From positions 96,001 through 160,000 of the IMG/VR virus record IMGVR_UViG_3300032156_000001: DNA of 64,000 bases, one strand, 5' to 3'. Each line of letters begins with the position of its first letter. Position 1 is the first letter of the stretch. The notes under the pieces were generated by a model. The model did no database searches and was not told the DNA's origin. It worked only from the letters and a program-made list of their open reading frames with translations. This DNA comes from a virus. Made by a program: the position numbers and the translations under genes. Of the stretch, positions 3,431 to 56,463 are shown piece after piece.

Positions 3431-4939
3431 GTGAAGATCCCGCTGAAACAGATCGCGATGGACGTTAGCGGCTACCGGGTCGGCGGCAACTTCTACTCCG
3501 ACCTTGCCAGCGTAGCCGCCGCGGAGCGTTCCACCGTCGTGGACGGCCTGATCGCCACGGTCGTGGACGATACCGCCGTCCTGTCCGGGCCGGGGCTGTC
3601 GCTCCTCGACGACGCCTACGCGGGCGGCTTCCTGATACTTGCGTCCGAGCCGTTTCCGGCGCCCAGCTCCAGCAGTTCCAGCCCCAGCAGCAGCCGCAGC
3701 TCCAGTTCCAGTTCCAGCCTGAGCAGCAGCTCCAGTCCCAGCAGTTCGAGCAGCCCCAGCAGCTCCAGTTCGAGCTCCGGCGTGCCTTCGCGGGCGCCGT
3801 ACCTGTACGTCTGCAGCATCGCCTCCTACCTGGCCGCGTCGAGGACGGTCAGGCTGGGCCAGCGCGCGCGGGTGGACGGCGACTACTACGCGCTCGTCGT
3901 CATGCCGATCCACATCTGGATGGACGGGATGATCGGCGTCAAAGCGGACGACCTGAACGCCCTGCCCGACCACTTCGTCCTGACCGGGCGCGGTTGGGAC
4001 GCCGACATCCTGCTGCCCACGGCGCCGGCGCAGCCGCCGGGCAAGCTGCAGGTCTTCGAGAACCTTACCGTCGCGGGCAAGAACGCGTCCTGGCTCGTTG
4101 ACGGCGCGCAGCACGGCATGCTCATCTTCCGCAGGGCCAGGGTGGGCCGCGGCGCGCCGGTCCAGCCGTCCGCGCCGGGCAGCTCCAGCAGCTCCAGCTC
4201 GATGTCCAGCAGCAGCTCCAGCTCCAGCGGGGCGGGCGGCCTGGACGCCGCCGTGGCGCTCATGAACGGGCCCGCGAAGGGCCACTGGGTCGAGTTCGTC
4301 GACTCCGAGCTGTACGGCGACGTCCTGTTCGCCAACGGCTACGCGCGGCTGACGGCGCTGCGGCTGGACCAGCGGGCCGGCAGGATCTCCGTTGCCCACG
4401 CGGACGGCAGGTTCGTCAGCGGCGGCTACTCGCTGGAAGGCAACGTGGCCGTGCTGGAAGACTGCTCGCTCACGGACGTCCGGCTGGCCTCCGCCAACGA
4501 CACGTACGGCGCGGTGTCGCTCAACGCCGTGACGCCGCTGCTCAGCCTGCTCGGCTGCAAGCTGGCCAAGTCGCCGATTTTCATTGACAACGCAGGGTGC
4601 GTGGTATCATGGGATCAGCCCGTGCTGCAGGCGCGGGGGTGCGAGTTCGAGGGCGGCTTCTCGCTGTTCTCGGGCGCCATCAACGGCCTGCACGGGGCGC
4701 ACGGCGCGTTGGTCGACCTCTGCGGCTGCCGGTTCGGCGGCCGGATCGACCTCGTGAACGGCTGGTACGTCGGCAGGTTCGACATGCGCGACTGCGACAG
4801 CACGTTCGCCGGCGGCTACTCGGTGTGCACCGGCGGCATCGATCCGACGATCTATCGCATTCTCGACACCAGGCTGGGGGGCACCGCCGAGGAGGCGGGC
4901 GGCCTGGTCGCCGTGGACTTGACGGAGTCGGTCGCCTAG
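3431..4939 (+). CDS. Putative fibre/appendage protein with two poly-Ser tracts
   Basis: 502-aa ORF with AGGAG RBS. Ser tracts at ~3665-3778 and ~4181-4228; C-terminus rich in alternating hydrophobic residues (beta-solenoid-like, inference). Confidence 0.7.
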   Translation: MKIPLKQIAMDVSGYRVGGNFYSDLASVAAAERSTVVDGLIATVVDDTAVLSGPGLSLLDDAYAGGFLILASEPFPAPSSSSSSPSSSRSSSSSSSLSSSSSPSSSSSPSSSSSSSGVPSRAPYLYVCSIASYLAASRTVRLGQRARVDGDYYALVVMPIHIWMDGMIGVKADDLNALPDHFVLTGRGWDADILLPTAPAQPPGKLQVFENLTVAGKNASWLVDGAQHGMLIFRRARVGRGAPVQPSAPGSSSSSSSMSSSSSSSSGAGGLDAAVALMNGPAKGHWVEFVDSELYGDVLFANGYARLTALRLDQRAGRISVAHADGRFVSGGYSLEGNVAVLEDCSLTDVRLASANDTYGAVSLNAVTPLLSLLGCKLAKSPIFIDNAGCVVSWDQPVLQARGCEFEGGFSLFSGAINGLHGAHGALVDLCGCRFGGRIDLVNGWYVGRFDMRDCDSTFAGGYSVCTGGIDPTIYRILDTRLGGTAEEAGGLVAVDLTESVA

Positions 4940-4963
4940 CCGGCTGCGTCGGGGGGCAACGAC

Positions 4964-53642: not shown

Positions 53643-53655
53643 AGGAGAACGGGCG

Positions 53656-56463
53656 ATGACTTACGTGCTTCCGCAGGTCCTGGTCCATCAGGAGTTCGCC
53701 GCCGCCCCCGCCGCGCTGGTCCAGCCGCTCAACGCGTGCATCATCGGGCCGCAGTACGACCTGCACCGGTACGCCGACGCGGACGAGAAGGCGCTCATCA
53801 AGGTGACGGACCAGTACGACCCGCTGAGCGACACCTGCTTCCCCTGGCCGGGCAGGCCGGCGGGCGGCGTGGTGGACCCGGACTACACGCGGGTCTTCAT
53901 GGACGACGCCTGGCTGGAGATGTACCACGAACCGGCCGGCGGCCCCGGCGGGCCCGTCCTGGCCGTCTCCGGGTACAGGAACAGGATCCGCGCGGAGAAC
54001 ATCGTCTTCGCCACGGCGAACGGATACGCCAGGTCGGCCGGTCTCCTCAGGGACATCCGGGCCGGCGACGGCGTCAAGGTGTTCGCGAACGCCTGCGGCG
54101 GCGTGTACGAGCTCAGGACCACGGTCCTCGGCCTCGTCGCCGACGTGGTCCCCGCGGTCATCGGAACGGCCGAGGCTGACGACGGCAACCACGACGCCAC
54201 CATCGTCGGCGTCACGATCGCCAACGCCGGCCAGCCAATCTCCGGCACGGTCAACAACGTGCTGCTGTCGGCCGGCGACGCGTCGAGCTACGACGGGATG
54301 GCCGACGGTAATCCCGATGAGACGTACGACATCGAGGTCCTGGTGGCCGGCGGCGAGAACGAGGCCGTCTTCCGCGTCACCTCCGCTTCCGGCAACGACG
54401 ACGACGCCTCCGTGGCGTTCAACGTGGCGTTCGGCGCCCCGATCGCCGTCGGCGCCCGCGGCTTGACCTGCACCTTCATCACGCGCGGGCCGGACGAGTT
54501 CGTCGTCGGCCAGGTGTTCAGGATCCAGGCGCGGCAGAACTTCACCCCGGCGACGTACGCGTCGGGCGGCACGTACACCGGCGAGTACGACACCACCTAT
54601 ATCGTCAGGGTGTCGCTCGGCGGCGCCTTCACTGACCCGGTCCAGCCGCAGATCACCGTGACGACCACGACGGGCGTGGACGTGTCCGGCCCGACGACCG
54701 TGACGGCCAGCGGCCTGGCGGTGCCGGTGGGCAACTACGGCGCGACCATCGCGTTCACGGGGCTGGCGCTGTGCAAGGGCGACCAGTACACGATCGTCGT
54801 GACGGCGGTCGCCGACGGCCCGGTCAAGACGCTCGTGCTGGCCAACAACCTGCCCGACGAGCTGCGGGGGATATGCGGGACCCGCGGCATCAGGGGGCCG
54901 TCCTCCTCGTCTTCATCCTCGAGCAGCTCCAGCAGCTCGGGCGCGCCGCCCGACCTGGACCTGACGCTGTACATGATCAAGGACATCGAGGTCCCGCAGG
55001 CCAAGTCGCCCGGCGCGCAGAACTGGACGCAGAGCGCGACCGAGATCTGCCTCAAGGCCGGCATCCAGGGCTACGACGCGGAGTGGGTCAGCGGCGGCGT
55101 CATGCAGGCCATGGACGTGGAGTACGGCGTGGTCTACGTGCAGCACCGCGACCAGCTGCCGACATGGTGCGCCACGGTGGGCACGGTGTCGGACGTGTCC
55201 GAGGTCCCGGCCGCCCTGGGCACCGTGGATCCCGACAACCCCCTGGCGTTCGGCGTGTACAAGGCGCTCGAGAACGCCGCCGGCGAGGACGTGAAGTACG
55301 TCGCCATCTGCGGCGACCCGGCGGACGTGAACAGCTGGCTGCCGGCGCTGGAGCTGCTGGTGGGCCGCGACGACGTGTACGGCCTGGTGCCGCTGACCCA
55401 GCAGAAGGACATCATGGATGCGGTCCTGGCGCACTGCCTGGCCGAGTCCACCCCGGAGGCGGGCCGCTGGCGGATCTGCTGGCTGAACATGCTGGCCGAG
55501 CAGCCGAAGCCCGTCTACGCGTACGAGTACGGCACGGCCGACCCGCTCCTGGCCACGATCACCGACGACCCGGACACCTCGGGCACCCAGTACACGCTGG
55601 TCGACATAGACGGCGGCAAGCTGGTGACGAAGGGCGTCCGGGCCGGCGACATCCTGCGGGCCGGGTACACCAGCGACGGGTTCGGCAACATCGTCTACGC
55701 GGAGTACGTCATCGACGCGATCCTCAGCGAGGAGTCGTGCCGGCTCGTGTCCGGCCCGGCCGTCGCCGTCACCGTCCCCAGCAAGATAGAGATCTGGCGC
55801 ACGCTGAGCTCGACGGAGCTGTCCGCCGAGTTGGCGGCCTACCCCGGCCTGTTCGGCAGCCGGCGCGCCTACCTGGTCTGGCCGGACGAGTGCGGGAACT
55901 CGGGCGACCGGTTCCCCGGCTACTTCCTCTGCGCGGCGCTGGCCGGCCTGCGGTCGGGCGTGCTGCCGCACCAGGGGCTCACGAACGTCGAGCTCATCGG
56001 CTTCGACGACATGACGGGCTCGATCGGCGACCTGACCGCGGTGCAGATGAGCGTGATGGCTGCGACGGGCTACTGGATCGTCGTCAAGGACCCGAACTCC
56101 GGCGCGATCTACACGCGCCATCAGCTCAGCTGCGGCGACCAGAGCGACGTGAACCAGAAGGAGCAGAACATCACGACCAACCTGGACGACATCTCCTACC
56201 TAGCGCTCGACAGGTTCTCGCCGTTCATCGGCCGCGGCAACGTGACGCCGACGATGATAGACATCGTCCGCGGCGAGTTCATCGCGCTGATGGAGCAGCT
56301 GACCAACACGATCGTGAGCAACCAGCTGGGGCCGCAGATCGTCAGCTACACGATCAAGGAGCTGCGGCAGGACCCGACGTACAAGGACAGGATCGTGGCG
56401 CGCGCGGAGCTGGTGCTGCCGGCCCCGTTTAACGTCCTCGATCTATTTTTGATCGTGAGCTAG
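53656..56463 (+). CDS. Tail sheath protein
   Basis: N-terminal YVLPQVLVHQE; C-terminal TRHQLS...NITTNLDDI...QDP...RIVARAELVLPAPFNVLDLFL; followed by a tube-sized gene. Confidence 0.8.
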   Translation: MTYVLPQVLVHQEFAAAPAALVQPLNACIIGPQYDLHRYADADEKALIKVTDQYDPLSDTCFPWPGRPAGGVVDPDYTRVFMDDAWLEMYHEPAGGPGGPVLAVSGYRNRIRAENIVFATANGYARSAGLLRDIRAGDGVKVFANACGGVYELRTTVLGLVADVVPAVIGTAEADDGNHDATIVGVTIANAGQPISGTVNNVLLSAGDASSYDGMADGNPDETYDIEVLVAGGENEAVFRVTSASGNDDDASVAFNVAFGAPIAVGARGLTCTFITRGPDEFVVGQVFRIQARQNFTPATYASGGTYTGEYDTTYIVRVSLGGAFTDPVQPQITVTTTTGVDVSGPTTVTASGLAVPVGNYGATIAFTGLALCKGDQYTIVVTAVADGPVKTLVLANNLPDELRGICGTRGIRGPSSSSSSSSSSSSSGAPPDLDLTLYMIKDIEVPQAKSPGAQNWTQSATEICLKAGIQGYDAEWVSGGVMQAMDVEYGVVYVQHRDQLPTWCATVGTVSDVSEVPAALGTVDPDNPLAFGVYKALENAAGEDVKYVAICGDPADVNSWLPALELLVGRDDVYGLVPLTQQKDIMDAVLAHCLAESTPEAGRWRICWLNMLAEQPKPVYAYEYGTADPLLATITDDPDTSGTQYTLVDIDGGKLVTKGVRAGDILRAGYTSDGFGNIVYAEYVIDAILSEESCRLVSGPAVAVTVPSKIEIWRTLSSTELSAELAAYPGLFGSRRAYLVWPDECGNSGDRFPGYFLCAALAGLRSGVLPHQGLTNVELIGFDDMTGSIGDLTAVQMSVMAATGYWIVVKDPNSGAIYTRHQLSCGDQSDVNQKEQNITTNLDDISYLALDRFSPFIGRGNVTPTMIDIVRGEFIALMEQLTNTIVSNQLGPQIVSYTIKELRQDPTYKDRIVARAELVLPAPFNVLDLFLIVS

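Follow-up and report, generated by a model that had tools for sequence, protein, structure and literature searches.

The virion proteins of an uncultured sediment phage with a 188-kb genome contain a set of nearly pure serine tracts which are located at domain junctions or C-termini and are predicted to be disordered. We interpret these tracts, with confidence that does not go beyond even, as polyserine spacers and tails that are intrinsically disordered, carry no charge and are hydrophilic. In the window, that is, the 64,000-nucleotide stretch of DNA analyzed here (genome bases 96001-160000), 10 tracts are distributed over eight genes, all on the plus strand (Table 1), and the tract reading frame is the coding frame, as judged by the high GC content at the third codon position. 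The serine runs that the initial annotation had claimed for eight genes were all recovered in the coding frame, at or near the positions expected; that list is accurate for the window but falls short of the full extent, with at least six additional tract-bearing genes 3' of the window (genome 165-184 kb); the 96 kb that precede the window are free of them.

Genome-wide, the plus-strand genes encode 35 runs of five or more serines in 13 genes, compared with 0.02 expected, and every other residue forms at most one such homopolymer. All the runs belong to the late half of the genome (13 of 60 late genes vs none of 83 early genes; Fisher p = 5e-6), and the affected proteins are the sheath and neck-like, near-baseplate and fiber-like proteins. 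The proposed location in a virion module is borne out by the major head protein upstream and the sheath and a baseplate wedge protein downstream. Most of the tracts are 5-38 residues long, with one reaching 70, and about half are C-terminal tails followed by no more than 13 residues.

Table 1. Tract-bearing genes and related features (window coordinates unless indicated otherwise)
Feature	Position	Strand	Tract or match	Remarks
Accessory protein, 502 aa	3431..4939	+	3665-3778, 38 aa, Ser with single P/R/L; 4181-4228, S7-M-S8	possibly a beta-helix fiber or spike
GT/MT cassette	15398..17897	+		accessory, unlinked to tracts
GT8-like gene	15398-16090		17 bits	below Pfam cut-off
Methyltransf_24	15991-16644		2e-17	
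Methyltransf_24	16654-17214		2e-16	
GT8-like gene	17187-17897		23.2 bits	Pfam cut-off 24.3
Major head protein	45781..46731	+	phrog_2522, 1e-05	start of virion block with tract genes
182-aa protein	47182..47730	+	47488-47556, S6-P-S5-P-S3-P-S6	
91-aa protein	47742..48017	+	47970-48005, S6-M-S5, then PAM, stop	~75-aa anchor domain, C-terminal Ser tail
356-aa paralog of 47742..48017	48057..49127	+	48279-48293; 48384-48425	anchor, Ser tracts, LamG/ConA-like lectin-type domain
335-aa paralog of 48057..49127	49146..50153	+	no Ser tract	anchor and LamG-like domain
111-aa truncated paralog	50166..50501	+	50475-50489, end TSSSSSPSA	C-terminal tract
303-aa protein	50569..51480	+	50731-50766, S12	
Neck or stopper-like protein, 334 aa	51815..52819	+	52712-52765, Ser-rich linker	
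Tail sheath, 935 aa	53656..56463	+	54901-54939, S13	residues 416-428
GT9 (heptosyltransferase-like) gene	178708-180330 (genome)		PF01075	virion module, outside window

Architecture of the tract-bearing proteins

The tail sheath, for which a Foldseek search retrieved the sheaths of phage 812, AFP, diffocin and pyocin R2, has 377 homologs, some of which match PF04984. Its S13 run separates the N-terminal beta-rich domains (residues 27-395) from the C-terminal sheath core (435-920), and residues 411-427 are modeled with pLDDT below 50 (mean of 82.7 for the whole model). In 97 homologs, the same alignment column accommodates 3-13 serines each, with the overall composition of 91% Ser, 4.6% Gly and almost no Thr or Ala; identity between the query and sheath homologs is 42-60%. 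Such strictness hints at serine chemistry, for example, modification. Mixtures of Gly, Ser, Thr and Ala would be equally good for flexibility alone, which counts against a pure spacer reading.

In the neck or stopper-like protein, which contains a CxxC...CxxCxGxG motif and shows weak Foldseek matches to the phage 812 stopper/neck and to T4 gp13/gp14, the Ser-rich linker runs from the core to a short peptide at the C-terminus that is conserved (C..GL..D..W), and residues 299-319 have AF2 pLDDT below 50 within a model that is otherwise confident. The linker is retained in 7 relatives; in three others (L010, L011, L013), the linker and the terminal peptide are both missing. The S12 run of the 303-aa protein separates an N-terminal domain of ~50 residues from the core; this junction holds a Ser-rich insert of variable length in L004, L005, L008, L009 and L075; in more distant relatives, the stretch found here is shorter and contains fewer serines. 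Similarly, the tract of the 182-aa protein bridges the N-terminal and C-terminal domains; a shorter Ser run occupies the same site in the orthologs from L004, L008 and L075, and a Pro/Thr/Ala linker replaces it in L009. The major head protein encoded upstream is 64-68% identical to its orthologs in the close relatives L004, L006, L008, L009 and L075, and 55-56% identical to those in L017 and L079.

Between these genes lies a family of paralogs with the anchor, poly-Ser and LamG-like architecture, of which one member is tract-free and two more are truncated. Paralog alignment identifies the anchor as common to the 91-aa and 356-aa proteins. Residues 125-356 of the latter match Laminin_G_3-type clusters (structure TM 0.72-0.77), and there is a weak match to phrog_10356, a virion structural protein. 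Short genes of the anchor-plus-tail type are also present in L004, L008 and L075/G007. The 111-aa protein consists of the first 11 residues of the anchor and the last ~90 residues of the LamG-like domain, and has no ortholog in the relatives examined. The tract-free 335-aa paralog serves as an internal control, indicating that the tract is dispensable for the anchor-LamG architecture. For the 502-aa protein, a beta-helix/pectate-lyase-like fold is a structural lead with scores below 0.9; orthologs were detected in none of 33 relatives, where the matches are confined to the low-complexity tract.

Conservation and origin of the tracts

Orthologous tract positions were identified in the sheath, the 182-aa, 303-aa and 334-aa proteins and four genes located 3' of the window, although the tracts themselves differ in length and sequence between relatives. 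Together with the 91% Ser composition of the sheath tract, this recurrence in several virion proteins supports the earlier proposal of selection at the protein level, and we infer that it is serine that is selected. In the whole genomes G007 and G003, the tracts are likewise restricted to the surroundings of the virion module. Tracts occur in relatives with 49-63% GC and are absent from those with 64-69% GC. The 69% GC control genome, G012, has none on the coding (plus) strand, its few runs all being in putative minus-strand ORFs, and shows short acidic, Ser-containing stretches at the tract sites; more generally, short acidic, Pro-rich or Ser-containing stretches occupy these positions in relatives without poly-Ser. 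The clade of G000 is fully supported and tracts are found in its every member. Judging from these genome comparisons, poly-Ser is a trait of certain clades, independent of GC composition.

The initial annotation set selection against replication slippage, but the two are not alternatives: in one array, a 21-nt unit is repeated 9.5 times in perfect tandem, and the nearest complete ortholog, in G007, lacks this repeat; such a repeat implies that slippage does create tracts. The two codon styles on which the argument relied are indeed present, but overall codon usage in the tracts equals the genome-wide serine usage, and each tract has its own 6- or 9-nt periodic unit, so that codon style is no argument against slippage. 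The identical stretch noticed at 4190 and 47976 is genuine, although 22 rather than 21 nt long; it is shared by the tract at 4181 of the 502-aa protein and the tail of the 91-aa protein, and exceeds chance expectation both when the tract codons are redrawn from pooled usage (P = 0.003) and when serine codons are shuffled inside each tract (P = 0.016).

Spacers, by-products of slippage or glycosylation acceptors

Under the spacer-and-tail reading, short units of 6-21 nt would expand by slippage at already loose linkers or C-terminal tails, and the expansions in this phage lineage would then be retained through selection for serine. The internal tracts would tether peripheral modules, namely the LamG lectin-like domain, the short C-terminal docking peptide and the outer sheath domains, to the parts built into the particle, and the terminal tracts would form a hydrated brush at its surface, all without dependence on the GT8-like/methyltransferase cassette. 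A linker role accounts for part of the set only because the C-terminal tails link nothing. That the tracts are instead neutral, functionless by-products of slippage, tolerated in loops and tails, appears improbable to us. The tandem repeat absent from the G007 ortholog, the periodic substructure, the wide length variation among relatives and the tract-free paralog are all compatible with neutrality, but this explanation sits poorly with the persistence of a 91% Ser tract at one sheath column across 97 homologs, with the fact that serine alone forms runs where other codon repeats would slip as readily, and with the confinement of the tracts to virion genes; moreover, mixed TCN and AGY codons are poor slippage substrates.

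A stronger competitor, which we nevertheless rate below the spacer reading and consider somewhat unlikely, is that the tracts and tails are acceptors of O-glycosylation, with a phage glycosyltransferase acting in the cytoplasm prior to assembly to produce a mucin-like virion coat; this is compatible with the tracts doubling as spacers. The exclusive use of serine and the exclusive location on virion proteins fit such a role. The version initially put forward, in which the cassette at 15398-17897 supplies both the sugar on the tracts and its methylation, is very improbable and, by comparative genomics, close to refuted. The cassette is real, with two Methyltransf_24 domains and two weak GT8-like genes close to fiber-like genes, and in G025, GT8-like homologs lie directly upstream of a small tail-bearing protein, the slot that elsewhere belongs to the GT9-like gene. 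However, the tail of that G025 protein is Ser-free, both GT8 matches in the cassette are below the Pfam cut-off, and the GT8-like gene is found in none of the eight relatives with Ser tracts, including the complete genomes G002, G003 and G007, compared with 2 of 42 without tracts, which leaves the link between the cassette and the tracts unsupported. Methyltransf_24 genes are scattered over the family (4 of 8 tract relatives, 11 of 25 others), and GT2 and GT4 genes are frequent family-wide, with or without Ser tracts.

The best candidate for a glycosylating enzyme, from sequence comparison, is the GT9-like gene of the virion module. It scores 30.9 bits against PF01075 (cut-off 22), its profile matches the structure of WaaF (1PSW) at 4e-5, and its motifs, an invariant N-terminal G-D, GGK..D..K.W and GGRE.WWW, are preserved in 16 orthologs; many relatives encode it as a fusion with a GT2-like domain. 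The gene was found in 7 of the 8 tract relatives, the exception being a 37%-complete fragment. Thus, tracts without any glycosyltransferase, the pattern proposed as evidence against modification, were not encountered among the sufficiently complete tract relatives. This retention and the presence of up to six glycosyltransferase-like genes in this phage count against the spacer reading. The GT9-like gene is directly upstream of a family-wide protein of ~150 aa, the C-terminal tail of which is rich in serine in 25 of the 34 enzyme-encoding genomes but in 1 of the 25 that lack the enzyme (Fisher 4e-8); in 6 of 8 genomes of the poly-Ser clade, this tail is enlarged, with 9-16 serines in its first 18 residues. 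Furthermore, Methyltransf_24 genes adjoin the GT9-like gene in G003, G014 and G049. Yet, correction for kinship leaves ~7 independent contrasts (~3.5 concordant, 0.7 opposite, 2.8 with no difference), and with so few, the association is not significant (sign test p ~0.4). There are discordant lineages in both directions: six genomes with the enzyme only (G022, G024, G027, G028, G062, G067), and G037 and G079/G080 with the tail only. In addition, many relatives without poly-Ser on other proteins also have the gene, its adjacency to the small protein is part of the gene order conserved family-wide, and its scores fall well short of the curated thresholds for LPS heptosyltransferases as well as for Aah/TibC.

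Relationship to known serine-rich systems

The closest parallel to the spacer-and-tail reading is offered by the polyserine linkers (PSLs), stretches of ~40 residues and ~80% Ser that connect the modules of secreted carbohydrate-active enzymes in Saccharophagus degradans, Teredinibacter turnerae and Cellvibrio japonicus (Howard et al. 2004, as cited in PMC2386152 and PMC2699552). The two citing papers call the function of the PSLs unknown and report no glycosylation of them, which speaks against the acceptor reading. Both the PSLs and the phage tracts are nearly pure serine between folded modules of proteins that act extracellularly, are lineage-specific, replacing Pro/Thr-type linkers of relatives, and use mixed serine codons; one phage tract likewise tethers a lectin-like (LamG) module. 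The carriers differ, being virion structural proteins in the phage and enzymes with carbohydrate-binding modules in the case of PSLs; the phage tracts are mostly shorter than the mean PSL and, unlike the PSLs, about half of them are tails.

A precedent for the glycosylation of virions is the phage-encoded modification of capsid and tail tube proteins in mycobacteriophages Che8, Corndog and Myrna (Freeman et al. 2023, as cited in PMC12363180 and PMC11256854). The phage described here is similarly tailed and has its own glycosyltransferase genes and possible virion acceptors. The modified sites in those mycobacteriophages reportedly lie near the subunit C-termini, as do many of the phage tracts. 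Unlike in the mycobacteriophages, the proposed acceptors are homopolymeric serines on many proteins, the sheath included, and the originally suggested cassette does not travel with them.

Gram-positive cocci produce Ser-rich repeat adhesins with dedicated glycosyltransferases. The point of resemblance is the presence of long Ser-rich, disordered stretches on a surface-exposed fiber protein; in the adhesins, these stretches bear abundant O-linked glycans added by enzymes from neighboring genes, some of the GT8 type. The adhesin repeats are Ser-X dipeptides extending over hundreds of residues, in a single exported protein that has a secretion system of its own, whereas the phage tracts, on many virion proteins, are short homopolymers for which modification is hypothetical.

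The bacterial autotransporter heptosyltransferases TibC and AAH (BAHTs), GT9-type enzymes that O-heptosylate protein serines in the cytoplasm (PMC4358343), belong to the same superfamily as the GT9-like enzyme, in favor of the acceptor reading. By TIGR04414 score, the phage enzyme is not a BAHT (no match for the G000 protein; 34 bits vs a cut-off of 200 for the G003 ortholog), and the profile search against solved structures retrieved WaaF and WaaC but not TibC. The catalytic-type G-D motif is at residue 14, leaving no space for the 97-residue N-terminal beta-barrel of the TibC type. A cluster of five cysteines (C264, C265, C270, C282, C296), all invariant or nearly so, follows the sugar-nucleotide-binding lobe and recalls the four-cysteine iron finger of TibC, albeit with different spacing.

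Extent, composition and expansion of the serine tracts

The phage under study is represented by a linear IMG/VR virus record of 188,118 bp (estimated to be 90% complete) with a GC content of 65-70% and nearly every gene on the plus strand; the window spans bases 96001-160000 of this record. The phage is uncultured and known here from assembled contigs alone, those of the source sample, probably a sediment metagenome, and of a second sample in which its share is low; a prophage scan of genome contigs for a host produced six metagenome bins only, with mixed and untrustworthy labels. 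A tblastn search with the tail sheath protein matched structural proteins encoded by Salmonella phage Arash and by Vibrio phages. Over its C-terminal half, the sheath shares 27-30% identity with proteins from Arash and three ~187-kb Vibrio phages, and the cultured phages are only distant kin.

The ten serine tracts reported in the initial annotation for eight genes of the window were all confirmed by a six-frame scan and codon listing, and are in frame with high third-position GC. Across the whole genome, with genes called from third-position GC (GC3), there are 35 runs of at least 5 Ser in 13 plus strand genes, against 0.02 expected from composition, and for every other residue the count is at most one. 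In the early half of the genome, 0 of 83 genes have a Ser run, compared with 13 of 60 in the late half (Fisher p = 5e-6); several of these genes lie past the window end, at genome 165-184 kb, including one with a 70-residue (SSSSSPP)n array. The tracts are mostly 5-38 residues long and consist entirely or almost entirely of Ser, interrupted at most by a single P, M, R, L, K or E at a time.

Two codon styles had been described in the tracts and taken as a sign of selection on the protein rather than slippage of the DNA. The styles are real for individual tracts, but pooled tract usage (TCG 39%, AGC 24%, TCC 22%) mirrors that of Ser codons genome-wide (35%, 33% and 23%, respectively), and Tandem Repeats Finder detects under each tract its own 6- or 9-nt unit. 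The perfect 21-nt array encoding (SSSSSPP)n (see the table) is missing from the ortholog in G007, a complete genome of a tract-carrying relative, where the flanking domains abut; the array is therefore a very recent expansion and would be well suited to tracking length variation within populations. This observation implies that slippage-type expansion creates the tracts and selection acts on those that are kept, so that the two processes are not the alternatives they were taken to be. The identical stretch noted at 4190 and 47976 is present as well, its true length being 22 nt. Sharing of this kind arose in 0.3% of trials in which the ten tracts were recoded by pooled codon usage and in 1.6% of trials in which Ser codons were shuffled inside each tract; the two S-M-S tracts likely have a shared origin or underwent gene conversion, a small effect. 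A degenerate (WSN)n DNA pattern was rejected as a tract counter because it is non-specific in the phage's own genome, and whole relatives were used instead.

Tract-bearing virion proteins and their relatives

PHROGs and Pfam searches with all tract-bearing proteins yielded almost no matches, so that the functions of these genes rest on gene order and folds. The anchors in the table place tract genes 47182-52819 between the head and the sheath, and the downstream tract genes past the baseplate wedge.

Positions of the anchoring and associated features (bare numbers, window; "genome", whole record)
Feature	Position	Strand	Remarks
Head protease, weak match	41168-42646
Major head protein family match	45781-46731
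Gene 51815	51815		Weak fold matches to phage 812 stopper and neck proteins and to T4 gp13/gp14
Second glycosyltransferase cluster, early half	genome 69100-72300 (L094), outside the window	+	Pair of neighboring GT9-like ORFs (16 and 25.5 bits) plus a GT2 (46 bits)
Baseplate wedge protein	genome 163458-165104
Perfect tandem array, 21-nt x 9.5	genome 174359-174557 (L090:16359-16557), outside the window		100% identity; codes for (SSSSSPP)n within a late protein of 380 aa
GT9-like gene in the virion module	genome 178708-180330, outside the window		PF01075, 30.9 bits, above cut-off
GT9-like gene, then small family-wide protein with Ser-rich C-terminal tail	genome 178708-181522 (L091:8708-11519), outside the window

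The gene at 53656-56463 encodes the contractile tail sheath, as indicated by its fold (in Foldseek, sheaths from phage 812, AFP, diffocin, PVC and pyocin R2 match at a probability of 1.00) and by the presence of PF04984 on several full-length homologs. Among the best 120 of the 377 sheath homologs in the protein collection, a Ser run of 3-13 residues occupies one alignment column, immediately ahead of the conserved PDLD motif; the clusters with this run number about 100 and share 47-60% identity with the query, whereas most of those at 42-46% identity have gaps at this column. Over 97 homologs, the sheath tract is 91% Ser and 4.6% Gly, with almost no Thr. AlphaFold2 models the sheath with a mean pLDDT of 82.7, but pLDDT drops below 50 exactly at residues 411-427, which separate a beta-rich N-terminal block from the C-terminal sheath core; in the model of 51815, it is below 50 at residues 299-319. 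The low pLDDT at the tract in both models suggests that the tracts are disordered connectors or tails. The linker of 51815 runs into a short conserved terminal peptide, and relatives that have no linker have no such peptide either.

Genes 47742, 48057, 49146 and 50166 are tandem paralogs with a common N-terminal anchor of ~75 aa. Genes 48057 and 49146 combine the anchor with a LamG/ConA-like domain, and only the former has serine tracts between the two modules; 47742 consists of the anchor and a Ser tail alone, and 50166 is an internally deleted copy with a terminal Ser tail. The relatives examined (L004, L008 and L075) have only the short form with anchor and Ser tail, which suggests that the copies with a LamG-like domain expanded recently in this phage. 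In the genome as a whole, tracts lie between folded modules in the sheath, 47182, 48057, 50569, 3431 and the genome 167181 gene, and about half are C-terminal tails (47742, 50166 and the genes at genome 165459, 171349 and 184263).

For 3431, no ortholog was found among 33 relatives; its product may be a beta-helix fiber or spike, which we offer as a lead only. Adjoining 3431-4939, a 1268-aa protein (4964-8770) with extreme Gly/Ala/Thr content, GGAGG-type repeats and no family match is probably a long fiber. Between it and the cassette of glycosyltransferase and methyltransferase genes lies a plus strand ORF (10686-11426), probably a fiber protein as well, with collagen-like Gly-X-Y repeats (GDPGxxGxKGDPG...) at 11030-11366 and periodicities of 27, 36, 45 and 63 nt.

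A query with the single sheath protein retrieved no related loci, but a scan built on an alignment yielded 80 related IMG/VR loci, each taken with 10 kb of flanking sequence. When runs of at least 5 Ser are counted in long plus strand ORFs, they cluster in the nearest relatives (L004-L009 and L075; GC 49-63%), with L079 as a more distant carrier; tracts were not found in relatives of 64-69% GC (L010, L013 and L021). High GC or codon bias is accordingly rejected as the cause of the runs, since these occur even in relatives of 49-55% GC. In the sheath tree, the phage belongs to a fully supported clade with L004, L005, L008, L009 and L075, all of them tract carriers; a second clade of carriers consists of L006 and L007, and three sporadic carriers lie elsewhere. 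The tree requires at least 5 trait changes, which rejects a single origin of the tract habit, and yet the clustering is strongly non-random (0 of 500 shuffles gave a number as low).

Orthologs of 47182, 50569, 51815 and four downstream genes contain Ser-rich inserts of variable length at matching junctions; in L009, the 47182 tract is replaced by a Pro/Thr/Ala linker. The 69%-GC control genome G012 has no poly-Ser and shows short acidic, Ser-containing stretches at the tract sites. A 441-aa ORF on its minus strand (96473-97798) has Ser runs of up to 16 and is either a putative gene or an antisense artifact. In the whole genomes of two carriers, G007 and G003, the tract genes are grouped around the virion module as they are in the phage under study.

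Glycosyltransferase genes and a small neighboring protein

The initial annotation suggested that the tracts, together with the GT/MT cassette at 15398-17897, may allow the phage to coat its virion with methylated glycans. The cassette is real, and its two Methyltransf_24 domains are clear, but it is weak on the transferase side, both of its GT8-like genes scoring under the Pfam cut-off. The proposed partnership fails on co-occurrence: the GT8-like gene is missing from every one of the 8 tract-carrying relatives, including the complete genomes G002, G003 and G007, and is present in 2 of 42 others. Methyltransf_24 is scattered over the family (4 of 8 carriers versus 11 of 25 others), and GT2 and GT4 genes are frequent family-wide. 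Judging from these gene distributions, the cassette is an accessory element unconnected with the tracts, and we consider it highly improbable that its enzymes modify them. Directly past the cassette lies a clear caspase-family gene (17768-18784; Peptidase_C14, 5e-30).

The whole-genome Pfam inventory, together with six-frame family searches, identified two weak GT8-like genes, three GT9-like genes (30.9 bits, 25.5 bits and one below cut-off) and one GT2 gene (46 bits). At the early-half cluster, the simple GC3 gene call wrongly favored antisense ORFs. The virion-module GT9-like gene is present in 7 of 8 carriers. PDB searches with single GT-like sequences returned nothing useful, but a 16-sequence profile of this protein matched WaaF and WaaC (WaaF, 1PSW, 4e-5 over the C-lobe). 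The motifs G-D, GGK..D..K.W and GGRE.WWW are invariant, as are D15, K129, K135, T198, R218, W222 and W223 in 16 orthologs, and a group of five Cys (264, 265, 270, 282 and 296), all invariant or nearly so, follows the C-lobe core. In many non-carriers (G009, G012, G013, G016, G022, G026, G028 and G047; loci L106-L113), the protein continues at its C-terminus into a fused GT2-like domain that contains a WFDDD motif; members of the poly-Ser clade either have a degenerate version of this motif (e.g., WMSRPA, WLDSYV, WFEQGA) or lack the GT2-like domain.

By the score of the curated model, the GT9-like enzyme does not appear to belong to BAHT (TibC/AAH): against the TIGR04414 cut-off of 200 bits, the protein of the phage has no match and its G003 ortholog scores 34.3 bits. 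LPS heptosyltransferase models give 19-40 bits, far under their cut-offs. The BAHT enzymes have a GT9-type GT-B catalytic core in which an acidic residue is the catalytic base and Lys, Arg, Trp and Thr contact the sugar nucleotide. TibC forms a dodecameric ring and has an N-terminal beta-barrel, a four-Cys iron finger in the C-lobe (339/342/358/370) and the contact or catalytic residues D110, T226, K230, R286 and W305 (PMC4358343). The G-D motif of the GT9-like protein is at residue 14, which leaves no room for the 97-residue barrel, and the spacing of its five-Cys cluster is unlike that of the iron finger.

Directly downstream of the GT9-like gene lies a gene (genome 180722-181522 in the phage under study) for a protein of ~150 aa that is present throughout the family. 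A Ser-rich tail, defined as at least 4 Ser in the 18 residues past a conserved glycine, occurs in 25 of 34 genomes with the GT9-like gene versus 1 of 25 without it (Fisher 4e-8), and in the carrier clade the tail has grown to 9-16 Ser in the first 18 residues (6 of 8 genomes). Because the genomes are related, this association comes down to about seven independent contrasts, with roughly 3.5 in agreement, 0.7 in the opposite direction and 2.8 unchanged (sign-test p ~0.4), and discordant lineages are seen both ways (enzyme without Ser tail and Ser tail without enzyme). We therefore do not accept the raw association as co-evolution; the association is unproven, and the two genes are a candidate enzyme-substrate pair, a lead and not a result. 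In G025 (135026-136798; L178), two GT8-like genes homologous to 17187-17897 occupy the GT9 slot upstream of the small protein, suggesting that different transferase families swap at one virion-module slot; the tail of the G025 protein contains no serine.

Readings of the tracts

Among phenomena already described, the nearest is the polyserine linker (PSL) of secreted enzymes of S. degradans and T. turnerae. In two reports (PMC2699552, PMC2386152), PSLs are ~80% or more Ser, typically about 40 residues long, and lie between folded modules of secreted carbohydrate-active enzymes with carbohydrate-binding modules; they are described from a few gammaproteobacteria and their function is described there as unknown. 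The phage tracts are likewise near-pure Ser, as the sheath illustrates. However, their carriers are virion proteins, in which domain and family searches detected no CAZyme domains, their lengths are mostly 5-38 residues, and those at C-termini do not lie between two modules. Thus, the phage tracts work like PSLs but fall outside the described enzyme set. A full-text literature search combining poly-serine, phage and virion returned no description of serine-only spacers on phage particles; such spacers are known from secreted bacterial enzymes.

The well-supported reading is that the tracts are disordered serine spacers and tails that arose by expansion at loose sites and were kept by selection on the virion proteins of one lineage. 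Expansion is common to this reading and to purely neutral slippage, which we consider improbable: the tracts occupy fixed sites conserved in core structural proteins, including the contractile sheath with its ~100 homolog clusters, which argues that they serve the particle. O-glycosylation of the tracts is possible, although we doubt it more than we favor it. It is in line with the strictly Ser composition, the many C-terminal tails, the confinement of tracts to particle proteins and the conserved GT9-like neighbor; against it, the GT9-like gene occurs in relatives that lack poly-Ser as well (23 of 42), and the sign test on the Ser tail of the small protein lends the pairing no significance. 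As in virion glycosylation of the mycobacteriophage type, this phage encodes glycosyltransferases, a glycan on its own virion being a proposal only. A more specific and rather unlikely version is that this large, widespread environmental phage family (~160-235 kb) has a dedicated late-operon glycosylation module, in which a GT9-type enzyme, often GT2-fused and beside a Methyltransf_24 gene, would be followed by the small virion protein, with the Ser-rich C-terminal tail of the latter as the original acceptor. In the lineage of the phage under study, the acceptor would have spread as poly-Ser to about a dozen virion proteins including the sheath, resulting in a heavily O-glycosylated, mucin-like particle.

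As plain spacers, the tracts would provide low-cost reach and flexibility for phage surface modules and natural insertion points for display or engineering. As sugar acceptors, they would extend virion glycosylation beyond a few mycobacteriophages to abundant uncultured phages, with a bearing on adsorption, particle stability in sediments and host recognition. The candidate enzyme-substrate pair can be tested in E. coli without phage culture.

The small protein itself varies in architecture: in the phage under study, it has an extra 92-aa domain past the tail, and in G002, its domain is duplicated within a 1005-aa ORF located away from the GT9-like gene.
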